From positions 1,481,410 through 1,545,409 of the forward strand of contig CAWGRW010000009.1 in the NCBI GenBank assembly GCA_963825135.1: a DNA stretch of 64,000 nt, written 5' to 3'. This document shows positions 3,929 through 44,305 of the stretch, piece by piece. The notes under the pieces are model-generated. The model was not told the origin of the DNA. It worked only from the letters and a program-made list of their open reading frames with translations, and made no database searches. The DNA is from an uncultured bacterium (GTDB lineage Bacteria > Desulfobacterota_D > UBA1144 > Nemesobacterales > UBA2774). Position numbers and translations under genes: made by a program. Every line of letters begins with the position of its first letter. The first letter of the stretch is position 1.

Positions 3929-4014
3929 GTTCGGATATCTAAATATATGTTAATGAATGCCGGGAGGCAATACGGCGATACATCGAAAGGAGCGTTCGGG
4001 CGTATTAATCAATC

Positions 4015-4614
4015 TTATCCGTCACAGGCGGGGTCACCGCTTCCGGATTCGAACGTGCCGTTTGCTCCCGAGGCCTGCGTTGTCACTGTACACTTGATGA
4101 CCTTGTCGGTGAATGCGGAGAAATCTTTCCTGCCGTTAACCCTCGCACTTGTCATAGAAGCCTCCCATCCGAAGTCTCCTTTGAGGGACTGAGCATCGGT
4201 GCCGGCGTCGTCGCTCCATGACAGACAGTATCCTGCTTTGGGATCGTTACAATCGGCGGAGCTCGAGGGGGTGCCGTCGTTAGTAACCGCGTCTTCGAAT
4301 GTAGAATCTAATAGTGCGTCTGCGGGATCGCTTGTTCCGCCCGGGTCTCTGAGTGTTCCCGCGGTGCCGAGAGATCCTATGAGGTTTGTAAAGTTCCTGT
4401 CACCGTTATCGTCCAGGTCCTGTTCGAAATACTCATATTCGGAGTCTTTTAGTGTCTGCAGGGCCTTCCGCGCGTTAGCTTCATTTGAAGAGATACGGGC
4501 TTTTAACAGGTTAGGTATAGCGATTGCGAGCAGGATACCGATGATAGCCGCCACTACGAGAAGCTCGATGAGGGTAAAGCCGTTTTCAATATTTCTATTT
4601 CTCTTCCTGATCAT
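4015..4614 (-). CDS. pilA: Type IVa pilin (PilA-like), paralog 1
   Basis: Class III signal peptide / prepilin motif KRNRNIENG|FTLIELLVVAAIIGILLAIAIPNL (Gly-1, Phe+1, Glu+5). About 170-aa variable C-terminal domain ending in Cys-containing …ACDG, like Myxococcus-type PilA. Confidence 0.85.
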   Translation of the reverse strand: MIRKRNRNIENGFTLIELLVVAAIIGILLAIAIPNLLKARISSNEANARKALQTLKDSEYEYFEQDLDDNGDRNFTNLIGSLGTAGTLRDPGGTSDPADALLDSTFEDAVTNDGTPSSSADCNDPKAGYCLSWSDDAGTDAQSLKGDFGWEASMTSARVNGRKDFSAFTDKVIKCTVTTQASGANGTFESGSGDPACDG

Positions 4615-4656: not shown

Positions 4657-4980
4657 CAACCGGCGCTAATATATCTGGTTTACATGCTTTCGTAACAGGC
4701 CCTCATTGTTATATAAATGGATACTCGAAATCGTATCGAGGGTAAGAATATTCATATGATACATTTCTTCAGAAAACGACTTGACAATATTTGTCATAGT
4801 GATGCGATTTCTGTTATCCGGGTGGGTCGAAGAAGAAATTGAAAGATAACATTCTTCCGAAAAACACAGCGGTGAGCTATTGTCAAGTTGTCAATTTTAT
4901 CATGAATACCAAGGGAATAATGGATCAATCGAATAGAACTATGGTCGTCGATTGGAGTAACGGTATACTGTTTCGGGAAT

Positions 4981-5050: not shown

Positions 5051-5656
5051 TTAATCGCAGCCGGGTGCAGTACGATGGGCCTCGAATGTCCCGACAGCTC
5101 CGGTAGCTTGTGTACTTAATGTGCATCTTATAACGCCGTCTCCGTATACGGAGAAGTCCCTTCTGCCGGTCTTGTTAAAGCTCGACATACTGTTCTGCCA
5201 GCCGAAGTCGTCAAAACCGCCTGAAGCATTTGCGGTGAATGCCGCGCCGGTCGAATCATTAAAATCACTTTGTATGCAATAACCCGCCTTCGGGTCAGCA
5301 CAGAGTGCGCCTCCTGTACTTAATGCGCCCTCGAAGCTGTCGTCAACAAGAGCGTCCTCTTCTACACTTGTACCCCCGGGATCACGCAAAGACTGAGCAG
5401 TTCCTAGTGCACCAATTTGATCGGTAAAATCTCTTCCACCCTGATCGTCCAGGTCCTGCTCGAAATACTCGCCTTCGGCATCCCTGAGCGTCTGCATGGA
5501 CTTTCTGGCGCTGGCTTCGTTCGCCGACATTCTCGCCTTTATAAGGTTGGGTATCGCGATCGCGAGCAGTATGCCGATGATTGCCGCTACCACTAGAAGT
5601 TCGATAAGCGTGAAACCCTTCTCTCCCTTTTTAACTCTGTTTAACTTGCTTAACAT
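5051..5656 (-). CDS. pilA: Type IVa pilin (PilA-like), paralog 2
   Basis: KGEKG|FTLIELLVVAAIIGILLAIAIPNL prepilin motif. The 25 aa after the cleavage site are identical to paralog 1; the C-terminal domain is divergent and ends …PGCD. RBS GGAGG 8 nt upstream. Confidence 0.85.
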   Translation of the reverse strand: MLSKLNRVKKGEKGFTLIELLVVAAIIGILLAIAIPNLIKARMSANEASARKSMQTLRDAEGEYFEQDLDDQGGRDFTDQIGALGTAQSLRDPGGTSVEEDALVDDSFEGALSTGGALCADPKAGYCIQSDFNDSTGAAFTANASGGFDDFGWQNSMSSFNKTGRRDFSVYGDGVIRCTLSTQATGAVGTFEAHRTAPGCD

Positions 5657-5698
5657 ATCAATAACCTCCGTTTCGGAAATAGTCTTGTAAACTAAGGA

Positions 5699-5714
5699 TG
5701 CAAAGGCCGTGCCA
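5699..5714 (-). promoter_or_regulatory. Sigma-54 promoter (consensus-quality -24/-12) for pilin paralog 2
   Basis: Minus-strand sequence TGGCAC-GGCCT-TTGCA matches the sigma-54 consensus TGGCAC-N5-TTGCW. It sits about 43 nt upstream of the ATG, with the GGAGG RBS in between. Confidence 0.55.
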
Positions 5715-5988
5715 CGTGCCGTTATTACGGCGTATTACACACATAAACCGCTGAAATACAATCGGAATTAGCTTTTATCACGAATATGCCGGATGGCATC
5801 CGGAACCATGGTCGCACTCACAAATTTTATTAATTGTGACATTTTTGCGTCCTTGACGTGACAATGTGACAAAATTTGTCAGGATGTCTGTTTTGGATAC
5901 TATCGGCATGGATATGATTGGGGAATGTTTATCAATCTGAGGAAGTATGCTATTTTATACTACCTATTTTAAAGGAGGCGGTTTTATC

Positions 5989-6519
5989 ATGCATAGAGAT
6001 AAGCATTTCGTTTTCCCGTTACTAATTTCGATTGCCTTTTTCGCCCTGATTGTTACCGGATGCACGACTATCAAAACTACTTCCTACTTTGCCCCGACAA
6101 AGACCAAGCTGCGCGACTTTCAGGCCATTCAGTTCGAGACGTTCGAGACTCAGATCGAGGATTTCCCTAAAGATGCTCTCACGAAGATCCCGGATAAAGC
6201 CGCCGCTCTCCTTGAATCCGAGAATAAGTTCAAAGAGGTTAAATACGGCAAGATTGAAAATATCCCCGCCGAGGATACTATAGTGTTGTTAGGCGAGATA
6301 AGCGAGTACAGACCGAGCTCGGATGTCTCGTTCGAAGGCGGCGCGCTTAAATTCGGCGAAGTCTCTATTTCCATCAAGCTCGCTCTGGTCAACAAAGCTA
6401 CGGGAGATGAAATCGCGACCGGAGAAGTGAACGGATTCAGCTCGACTGGATTTATGGCGAAGGACATTTTCCAAAGCCTCGCGGAGGAAATAGTAAAGTA
6501 TATAAACGAAACCTATTGA
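5989..6519 (+). CDS. Hypothetical lipoprotein
   Basis: Signal peptide with lipobox LIVTG|C. Strong RBS AAAGGAGG 10 nt upstream of the ATG at 5989; the track ORF starts earlier at 5947. No family recognised. Confidence 0.5.
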   Translation: MHRDKHFVFPLLISIAFFALIVTGCTTIKTTSYFAPTKTKLRDFQAIQFETFETQIEDFPKDALTKIPDKAAALLESENKFKEVKYGKIENIPAEDTIVLLGEISEYRPSSDVSFEGGALKFGEVSISIKLALVNKATGDEIATGEVNGFSSTGFMAKDIFQSLAEEIVKYINETY

Positions 6520-6561
6520 GCGGTCGGTACGACGCTTTGAAAATTAAATTTGGAGGATGAT

Positions 6562-39783: not shown

Positions 39784-40806
39784 TTGATGATAGATATGCT
39801 CGAAGAGGTTAAAAAACAGGCGGAAGCCGAGCTCAGTTCGGTAAGCGACGAGATATCTCTGCAGAACCTCAAGGCCAAATTCGTCGGCAGGAAGGGGGTT
39901 ATCACAGAGATATTAAAGGGCATGAAGGATATACCCGACTCCGACCGACCGCGCATGGGGAAGCTCATAAACGAGACCAAGACCTTCGTCGAGGACCTCA
40001 TCGACGGCAGGCTTAACGAGATCAGGGACGAGAAGAAGAGACGCTCCCTCTTTGAGGAGAAAATAGACGTCACGCTTCCGGGTAGGGGAATGCCGATAGG
40101 GGCGAGACACCCCATAACTCAGGTCATGGAGGAGATAATAGCGATCTTCGAGAGAATGGGGTTCGAGGTCGCCGAAGGCCCCGAGGTCGAGACCGACTAC
40201 TATAACTTCGAGGCGCTCAATATTCCCAAGAACCACCCGGCGCGGGACATGCAGGACACATTCTATATTTCCGACGATATAGTCCTCAGGACACACACCT
40301 CCCCCGTTCAGATACGAGTCATGGAAAAGCGGAAGCCTCCGGTGAAAATTATCGCCCCCGGGAAGGTGTACAGGTGCGATAGCGATATATCGCACACGCC
40401 TATGTTCCACCAGATAGAGGGGCTCCTCGTCGACGAGGGGGTAACTTTCGGGGACCTGAAGGGGGTGCTGACCGAGTTCGTGAGGCTCGTCTTCGGAGAG
40501 GGCGTGGGGGTCAGGTTCAGGCCGAGCTTCTTCCCGTTCACGGAGCCGAGCGCGGAAGTCGACATAGCGTGCCTCATATGCGGGGGGAAGGGGTGCAGGG
40601 TGTGCAAGAACACCGGCTGGCTCGAGATTCTGGGCTCCGGCATGGTCGACCCGGAGGTCTTCAAGAGCGTGGGTTACGACCCCGATAAATACTCGGGCTT
40701 CGCTTTCGGCATGGGGATCGAAAGGATAACCATGCTCAAATTCGGCATCAACGACATAAGGCTCTTCTTCGAGAACGACCTCCGTTTCCTAAGGCAGTTC
40801 ACCTGA
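39784..40806 (+). CDS. pheS: Phenylalanine--tRNA ligase alpha subunit
   Basis: Class II aaRS motifs (…FRPSFFPFTEPSAEVDI…, …GSGMVDPEVF…, …GFAFGMGIERITMLKFGI…). 340 aa. No pheT follows. Confidence 0.9.
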   Translation: MMIDMLEEVKKQAEAELSSVSDEISLQNLKAKFVGRKGVITEILKGMKDIPDSDRPRMGKLINETKTFVEDLIDGRLNEIRDEKKRRSLFEEKIDVTLPGRGMPIGARHPITQVMEEIIAIFERMGFEVAEGPEVETDYYNFEALNIPKNHPARDMQDTFYISDDIVLRTHTSPVQIRVMEKRKPPVKIIAPGKVYRCDSDISHTPMFHQIEGLLVDEGVTFGDLKGVLTEFVRLVFGEGVGVRFRPSFFPFTEPSAEVDIACLICGGKGCRVCKNTGWLEILGSGMVDPEVFKSVGYDPDKYSGFAFGMGIERITMLKFGINDIRLFFENDLRFLRQFT

Positions 40807-40826
40807 TCGGACTCTTAGCACCTAAT

Positions 40827-40950
40827 ATTTGTCACTGCGAGCGTAGCGCGGCAATCTCATCACTTTCTCGTTTCATTTTTGTCATCCTGAACTCGTTTCA
40901 GGATCTGATCTTTTAAGTTTTGTCATTCCCGAATGTCTTTATCGGGAATC
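40827..40950 (+). repeat. Tandem array of three REP-like hairpin repeats, each TTTGTCA[C/T] plus an 8-bp-stem palindrome
   Basis: Units begin at about 40828, 40878 and 40919. Unit 2 is ATCCTGAA-ctcgt-TTCAGGAT and unit 3 is ATTCCCGA-atgtcttta-TCGGGAAT; unit 1 is degenerate. Confidence 0.6.
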
Positions 40951-40997
40951 CATTCTTATCCTTTAACGCCACCTCTTATATGTGGATGCGTGGGAGT

Positions 40998-41051
40998 GGG
41001 GGGTACGTTAAATTCCCCCCAATTGAGTTAAATCCCCGTCTGTGGTACTAT
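40998..41051 (+). promoter_or_regulatory. G6-N11-C6 hairpin followed by a putative sigma-70 promoter (TTGAGT-17-TACTAT) upstream of dcd
   Basis: GGGGGG-tacgttaaatt-CCCCCC at 40998-41020, then TTGAGT (41023-41028), a 17-nt spacer and TACTAT (41046-41051). The dcd ATG is at 41097. Confidence 0.3.
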
Positions 41052-41096
41052 GCTTTTCCCTAAGCGGTAAAACCCAAATCACCAGGAGTAAGAACA

Positions 41097-41651
41097 ATGG
41101 GAGTCAAGCCCGACCACTGGATCAGAAAGATGGCCAAAGAGCATAAAATGATAGACCCTTTCGTCGACGGGCAGGTGAGGGAGGGCGCTATATCGTACGG
41201 CCTCTCCGCATACGGCTACGACATCAGGGTGAGCGACGAATTCAAGGTATTCACTAACGTGTACAACACCGTAGTCGACCCCAAGGGTTTCGATGAACGA
41301 TCGTTCGTCGAGATTAAATCGGACGTCTGCATGATCCCGCCCAATTCATTCGCGCTCGCGCGGACGGTCGAGTACTTCAGGATACCCAGGAGTACCATCA
41401 CGCTCTGCGTCGGGAAGTCCACATACGCCAGGTGCGGGATTATAGTGAACGTCACCCCGTTCGAGCCCGAATGGGAGGGGTTCGTCACGCTCGAGATCTC
41501 GAACACCACGCCTCTTCCGGCGAAAATATACGCCAACGAGGGCATAGCCCAGGTGCTTTTTTTCGAGGCCGACGAGATGTGCGAGGTCTCTTACGCGGAC
41601 AAGAAGGGGAAATACCAGAAGCAGATGGGGATAACTCCGCCCAGGGTGTGA
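41097..41651 (+). CDS. dcd: dCTP deaminase
   Basis: 184 aa; …[22 protein letters not shown]…, …[31 protein letters not shown]…, typical of Dcd. Confidence 0.9.

Positions 41652-41830: not shown

Positions 41831-44305
<2,475 letters not shown>

Follow-up and report, generated by a model that had tools for sequence, protein, structure and literature searches.

The window analysed here, a 64-kb stretch of DNA, carries on its + strand pheS (39784–40806), which encodes the alpha subunit of phenylalanyl-tRNA synthetase (Pfam tRNA-synt_2d, 4e-107, and Phe_tRNA-synt_N), followed by dcd (41097–41651; dCTP deaminase, Pfam DCD, 2.8e-36) and gyrB (41837–44305; Pfam DNA_gyraseB, Toprim, HATPase_c and GyrB_C). 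The Pfam domains identified the last of these, an 822-aa open reading frame (ORF) downstream of dcd, as gyrB rather than pheT, which corrects the context given for it earlier. As read from the sequence, the pheS stop codon occupies positions 40804–40806 and the dcd ATG begins at 41097, so that 290 bp separate the two genes, and it is within this spacer that the repeats described below are located. The closest relatives of the PheS protein were found in Candidatus Dadabacteria CSP1-2 (79% identity), in bacterium HR37 (76%) and in related metagenome-assembled genomes of Thermodesulfobacteriota; by its PheS, the host is a relative of Candidatus Dadabacteria. In five genomes of the Dadabacteria clade in which DNA past pheS was available (L122–L126), the gene order was pheS-dcd-gyrB throughout, as in the window.

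Three TTTGTCA heads are present in the spacer, all on the + strand, at positions 40828, 40878 and 40919 (spacing of 50 and 41 bp). This is in line with the first-pass annotation, which had described three tandem TTTGTCA units at this place, the first of them degenerate, and the other two are indeed perfect 8-bp hairpins. Unit 2 (U2; 40878–40905) reads TTT-GTC-ATCCTGAA-CTCGT-TTCAGGAT-C, with its perfect 8-bp inverted repeat at 40884–40891 and 40897–40904, and is followed on its 3' side by a T-rich tail (TGATCTTTTAAG) that extends to about position 40917; its single-stranded DNA fold has a free energy of −6.1 kcal/mol (z −3.3). Unit 3 (U3; 40919–40950) reads TTT-GTC-ATTCCCGA-ATGTCTTTA-TCGGGAAT-C, in which ATGTCTTTA is the loop between the perfect 8-bp arms at 40925–40932 and 40942–40949; its tail (CATTCTTATCCTTTAAC) extends to about position 40967 and the single-stranded fold has a free energy of −6.9 kcal/mol (z −3.2). 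Unit 1 (U1; 40828–40856) reads TTT-GTCAC-TGCGAGCGTAGCGCGGCAAT-C and is a degenerate copy of a two-tier type, GTCATTGCGAG...GGCAATC. Positions 40831–40856 of it read GTCACTGCGAGCGTAGCGCGGCAATC, and its DNA fold (−3.7 kcal/mol, z +0.15) was no better than that of shuffled sequences. U1 differs by two substitutions from GTCATTGCGAGCGAAGCGCGGCAATC, found in the locus L051 of the IMG/VR collection; since one of the two, a T-to-C change in the head, breaks the second stem pair, U1 was regarded as a decayed copy. This decay suggests that the cluster may be a relic.

The clustering of the heads is not due to chance. In the whole 64-kb window, 4.0 ± 2.2 copies of TTTGTCA are expected on both strands together, and the approximate probability that three of them fall on one strand within 100 bp at any place in it is ~2e-5. 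Further, GTCAT joined to a perfect stem of 7 bp or more occurred twice, whereas 200 dinucleotide-shuffled sequences contained 0.185 such units on average. No further units were detected in the window outside this single cluster; the other matches to GTCAT with an imperfect stem all lacked the C tail and were chance-like. We also dismissed a CRISPR-like array, as only the heads of about 8 nt are repeated and the hairpins differ between units.

Downstream of the three units, the G6-N11-C6 hairpin reported previously was also recovered. It spans 40997–41021 on the + strand (TGGGGGG at 40997–41003, CCCCCCA at 41015–41021), with a fold of −7.4 kcal/mol (z −2.0). It is not a GTCAT unit and has no T-run on its 3' side; at the aligned position, the relative L123 carries a weaker AGGG/CCCT hairpin. 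Searches of the whole 64-kb window against Rfam at gathering thresholds returned no match, and when the spacer was searched at E values up to 10 only chance snoRNA-like matches were obtained.

All three units share one frame, GTC-AT...AT-C, in which GTC directly precedes the palindrome (40831–40833, 40881–40883 and 40922–40924) and C directly follows it (40856, 40905 and 40950). A 47-aa ORF without a Pfam match (40920–41063, +) spans U3 and the G/C hairpin; it is almost certainly spurious, and the repeat family probably gives rise to other false 'hypothetical proteins' of small size.

The Neisseria Transformation Sequence (NTS, CGTCATTCCCGCGMAVGCGGGAATCYRG), of which the long-known dRS3 repeat forms part, and a wider class of Ssn-related motifs (SRM) were defined by Chenal et al. 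2025 (Nat Commun 16:2388; PMC11893778). In the system described there, NTS/SRM hairpins flank ssnA, which encodes a 94-aa single-domain GIY-YIG nuclease, and are cut by it: SsnA binds the hairpin that such a unit forms on single-stranded DNA and cleaves the strand a few nucleotides upstream of GTC, in Neisseria and three other species, and leaves double-stranded DNA, RNA and the reverse strand untouched (PMC11893778). Cleavage depends most on the three bases 5' of the palindrome and binding on the 3' C, and with the enzyme of N. meningitidis a change in the palindrome that kept the hairpin abolished activity (PMC11893778).

The units of the window resemble NTS/SRM in several respects. They are oriented, with GTC on the 5' side, stem ends AT...AT and C on the 3' side; they are intergenic and clustered, and their stem sequences vary widely. 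A hairpin palindrome in an inverted repeat of 20–50 nt, a further feature of SRM, was found in U2 and U3 (z about −3.2) and in part in U1. However, the published pattern, HGTCWYN(0-2)YYVSBRHN(0-5)WNVSBRGN(0-2)RNCYNB, had no match in the window when applied as a regular expression, and U1, U2 and U3 each failed it even after the permitted loop had been extended to 12; the canonical NTS, used as a control, passed. U3 has a 9-nt loop, U2 a CCTGAA stem and U1 a two-tier hairpin. The present case differs also in that the window has no ssn gene, in its host, which belongs to a Dadabacteria-type lineage, and in the presence of three palindromes side by side, in contrast with the palindrome-specific Neisseria enzyme. 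As for the dRS3 repeat and the Neisseria intergenic mosaic elements (NIME), U3 shares with them its ATTCCC...GGGAAT arms, and both are mosaics of short tandem intergenic units; however, dRS3 is ATTCCC-N8-GGGAAT and U3 is ATTCCC-N13-GGGAAT, so U3 is not a dRS3 copy, U1 and U2 have other arms, the units are not separated by RS blocks and the host lies outside Neisseria.

Since the units do not conform to the published SRM expression, their link to ssn genes was tested directly. Two small GIY-YIG proteins (Pfam PF01541) whose genes adjoin units in viral loci were employed as queries, and 80 metagenomic ssn-like loci were fetched. To count as strict, a unit had to consist of GTCAT, a perfect stem of 7 bp or more, a loop of 3–25 nt and then C. 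Within 300 bp of an ssn-like gene there were 175 such units per 100 kb, compared with 11 per 100 kb in the remainder of the same loci and 0.42 per 100 kb in the unrelated PheS control loci (1.19 Mb). Most units around the ssn-like genes formed inverted pairs, with 38 on the + strand upstream of the gene and 24 on the − strand downstream of it. Among all perfect hairpins whose stems reach 8 bp or more, collected with no preselection of the head, GTC-AT...AT-C was the commonest context in the ssn-like loci.

The very unit types of the array were found at such genes. Units of the U1, U2 and U3 types lie 20–110 bp from ssn-like genes in L225, L266, L220, L221 and L251: the U2 type GTCATCCTGAACTTGTTTCAGGAT, with the same stem and one loop base different, is located 36 and 75 bp from the gene in L225 and L266, respectively; the U3 type, with its 8-bp stem and 9-nt loop, flanks the genes in L220 and L221; and the U1 type is located 62 bp upstream in L251. 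The U2 type GTCATGCTGAACTYGTTTCAGCAT was detected in L237, L240, L266 and L268. The array's unit types thus flank small single-domain GIY-YIG genes elsewhere, as NTS/SRM do. The metagenomic ssn-like genes encode single-domain GIY-YIG proteins of about 95 aa and have canonical NTS at their flanks; among structures in the PDB, the only relatives of these proteins were UPF0213, and a comparison with NCBIfam gave no match above the cut-off and one far below it. On these sequence features the genes are candidate members of cd10448. In L266 and L220 a single ssn-like gene is flanked by units with different palindromes (in L266, GCTGAA upstream and CCTGAA downstream), which may indicate that stem specificity is relaxed or that units recombine. 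Six-frame phmmer searches revealed no ssn or GIY-YIG gene in the 64-kb window, and none was found in 105 kb from the five relatives.

Copies of the family are widespread in other contigs. IMG/VR contigs scanned with TGTCATTCCCG-N(3-20)-CGGGAATC yielded more than 120 stretches with at least 171 copies. In the IMG/VR loci, the stems that follow GTC in the GTCAT hairpins include ATTCCCG, ATTCCGG, ATCCCCG, ATCCTGA, ATGCCAG, ATTGCCC and others; GTC precedes all of them, and the tail base was C in 341 of 414 units in the viral loci listed. A copy identical to U3, loop included, was found in L064, with a U2-type hairpin before it and a GTCATTGCGAG... hairpin after it, and the U1, U2 and U3 types occur together in same-orientation mosaic arrays in L064, L072 and L051. 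To avoid circularity, 52 sites were chosen by head, loop and tail alone; 47 of them had all four free stem positions complementary, and these 47 cover at least six different stems. In line with this, a GTCAC head is accompanied by a GTC tail, which is a compensatory change. As judged from these substitutions, the stems are kept by compensatory changes, i.e., the hairpin is selected.

Outside IMG/VR, an exact 26-nt copy of U2 was found at 4001–4026 of L281, the plasmid pTomTYG65a of Sphingobium sp. TomTYG65, an alphaproteobacterium, where it is flanked by two convergent genes, rpoN2 and a lysophospholipase gene; an identical unit is therefore present at phylum-level distance from the host of the window. 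BLAST searches with U2 plus U3 gave only two short matches among plasmids, in Sphingobium and Sulfurovum, and none among phages, the units being too short for BLAST.

Several further arrangements were observed in the IMG/VR material. The putatively viral loci L064, L072, L051, L038 and L060 carry very dense one-orientation mosaics of several units per kb and many GTCAT-hairpin types, interleaved with CCCCCCTT-loop-AAGGGGGG hairpins followed by GGGGGGATTTAAT; in the window, positions 41007–41037 on the opposite strand are weakly similar to these modules. In many phage-like loci (among them L046, L048, L044, L056 and L096), GTCATTCCCGCG...GGGAATCCAG and GTCATTGCGAG...GGCAATC units are found in sense orientation, often 10–25 nt 5' of a ribosome-binding site and an ATG. 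By this placement, a subset of units may have a role in local gene expression, despite the unbiased overall orientation of the family described below.

Taken together, the array is probably a mosaic of three oriented hairpin repeats of the NTS/SRM kind, inserted into a pre-existing pheS-dcd spacer. Other readings were weighed against this one.

The strongest of the remaining candidates, which we nonetheless consider unlikely, is that the hairpins were selected as an RNA-level terminator or 3'-end stabiliser of pheS. The array lies directly 3' of the pheS stop codon and 5' of a promoter-like site for dcd, and U2, taken together with its tail (ATCCTGAACTCGTTTCAGGAT CTGATCTTTT), agrees with a loose terminator consensus, although it is the only unit that does so, and weakly. 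However, two terminator-like sites in the region compare with 0.9 ± 1.0 in shuffles and are thus not in excess, the T-run begins 5–7 nt past the stem in U1, U3 and most family members, and the whole spacer folded as RNA was no more stable than shuffled sequence (z −0.5). Further, in bacterium HR37 (L122) the spacer between pheS and dcd measures only 30 bp, so that no terminator is needed there. Finally, of 139 family members located between co-directional ORFs, 66 were in the same and 73 in the opposite orientation, a count based on crude ORF calling. This balance argues against transcript-level selection for the family and fits an element that acts at the DNA level. The role in termination or RNA stability suggested in the first-pass annotation is therefore not the general function of the family; the pheS transcript may still be affected locally and incidentally.

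The promoter-like site mentioned above, TTGAGT-N17-(TGG)TACTAT, is located at 41023–41051 on the + strand and is shared with positions 6533–6561 of L123. In the alignment, the window and L123 (MFD09513) have in common AATTGAGT-N-TGGTA(C/G)TAT (AATTGAGT...TGGTAGTAT), with an identical spacing of 17 nt. The block agrees with the consensus at 8 of 12 positions, below the threshold of the sigma-70 promoter scan, which detected nothing at threshold, so the proposal of a dcd promoter draws on the conservation in L123. The block is plausibly the dcd promoter, and the 3' part of the spacer appears, from the same alignment, to be ancestral.

That the units are REP or BIME elements maintained by a RAYT, a Y1 transposase of the IS200/IS605 type, we hold to be very unlikely. 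REP elements have a GTAG or GT[AG]G tetranucleotide as head. The heads found here are GTCAT or GTCAC; all three units lie on the + strand as direct repeats, in contrast with the alternating orientation of BIMEs; and elsewhere these unit types flank small GIY-YIG genes, the REP enzyme being a HUH Y1 transposase. No transposase was detected in Pfam scans of 25 ORFs of the window, which included 12 of the longest. The likeness to REP/BIME and RAYT nevertheless goes some way: in both, short palindromes outside genes carry a conserved head on their 5' side, cluster in spacers and form mosaics, and the hairpins are recognised in single-stranded form by a small nuclease encoded between them, and the analogy of NTS/SRM with REP was drawn by the authors of the system themselves (PMC11893778). 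Accordingly, the earlier comparison with REP/BIME or MITE-like elements holds insofar as the units belong to an interspersed, hairpin-forming intergenic family, analogous to REP/BIME, that is found in many genomes and has compensatory stems. It does not hold for membership, since neither the GTAG head, nor the alternation, nor terminal inverted repeats were found and the association is with ssn-like genes instead. A MITE, which would be a unit of 100–400 bp with terminal inverted repeats and a target-site duplication, was rejected for the same lack of terminal inverted repeats, as the repeat search retrieved only the hairpins within units and short direct repeats of the heads.

Still less probable is the reading of TTTGTCA as a double-stranded binding site of a regulator that acts at pilin genes as well. 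The same 7-mer does occur in palindromes at 4781–4796 and 5867–5881, 5' of two pilin-like genes with an N_methyl motif (4015–4614 and 5051–5656, both on the − strand). However, outside the array TTTGTCA was found six times against 4.0 ± 2.2 expected, i.e., at chance level, and the sites at the pilin genes are built differently, as inverted TGACAA-N3/4-TTGTCA palindromes plus tandem TGTCA(C) repeats without an adjoining hairpin. They are also upstream of a perfect sigma-54 promoter, TGGCACGGCCTTTGC (5700–5714, −), 44 bp before the gene at 5051–5656: the TGTCAC/TTGTCA repeats at 5838–5885, which include the palindrome TGACAAAATTTGTCA, lie about 130–230 bp upstream of this promoter. Upstream of the second pilin-like gene (4015–4614), the motifs TTGACAATATTTGTCA and TTGTCAAGTTGTCAA were observed (4781–4796 and 4881–4895). 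In addition, what is conserved across hundreds of copies of the array family is GTCAT plus palindrome plus C, and not TTTGTCA. The 7-mer shared with the pilin upstream regions, for which coincidence or a common protein-binding motif had been offered as explanations, is thus coincidental. PilR-type regulators bind TGTC repeats, and the layout of the pilin sites is probably that of a regulon controlled by a PilR-like enhancer-binding protein.

Hardly credible, finally, is the idea that the array is the breakpoint scar of a separation of pheS from pheT. The canonical adjacency is common in neighbouring lineages: of the 80 PheS loci retrieved, 65 have pheT directly 3' of pheS. However, none of the five relatives (L122–L126) has pheT within 10 kb of pheS. 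In the window, tblastn with five PheT sequences gave no match, and no pheT domains were seen when 12 of the longest ORFs were compared with Pfam. Because the five relatives share the order pheS-dcd-gyrB without pheT, the split is ancestral to the clade and predates the array, a possibility that the first-pass annotation had named as contrary to its own proposal. The spacers of L124, L125 and L126 measure 100–190 bp, and that of L123 measures 1.3 kb and has two inserted genes at 5452–6382 (DUF2007 and a dual-specificity phosphatase); none of the spacers of L122–L126 contains a GTCAT-hairpin unit. Since these spacers, down to 30 bp in HR37, lack units, the array is a later, lineage-specific insertion, and the notion that it occupies the 'pheT position' or marks a breakpoint does not stand. 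With two genes inserted in L123 and 30 bp in HR37, the pheS-dcd spacer was also observed to be an insertion hot spot in the Dadabacteria clade.

Returning to the mosaic of NTS/SRM-kind repeats, each unit would consist of GTC, a palindrome that starts with AT and ends with AT, C and a T-rich tail of 12–20 nt, a length that accounts for the period of 41–50 bp. The + strand at 40828–40950 would then present three candidate Ssn sites, one of them decayed. Given a cognate Ssn in the genome, a nick would be expected in the T-run immediately 5' of every GTC whenever the strand is single-stranded, for instance in replication, in repair or in the uptake of DNA. Insertion or duplication would have brought the units into the old spacer in this Dadabacteria lineage, where they may be tolerated since dcd appears to be served by a separate promoter located 3' of the array; if the pheS transcript is affected at its 3' end, this would be incidental.

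As the N. meningitidis enzyme is palindrome-specific, the presence of three palindromes calls for several enzymes or for relaxed specificity. The mosaics in the window and in L064, L072 and L051, together with the flanks of L266 and L220, could reflect one Ssn that reads frame and shape, or a second partner; we regard this as a long shot, if a slightly better one than a selected terminator. If true, it would point to a structure-guided, sequence-relaxed nuclease for single-stranded DNA, unlike the sequence-specific Neisseria enzyme, and both the T-rich tails and the 9-nt loop, which is semi-conserved (ATGYYTTWA), would have a function within a longer unit of about 45 nt.

For the locus itself, these results mean that the array is not a scar of the loss of pheT: the gene order is old and the repeats are a later passenger. 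Ssn-related hairpin repeats, only recently described, would reach into a Dadabacteria-type lineage, and published counts of such elements are likely underestimates, since stem and loop variants escape the published pattern. From a biotechnological point of view, every further class of palindrome may indicate an Ssn enzyme that differs in its specificity for single-stranded DNA.
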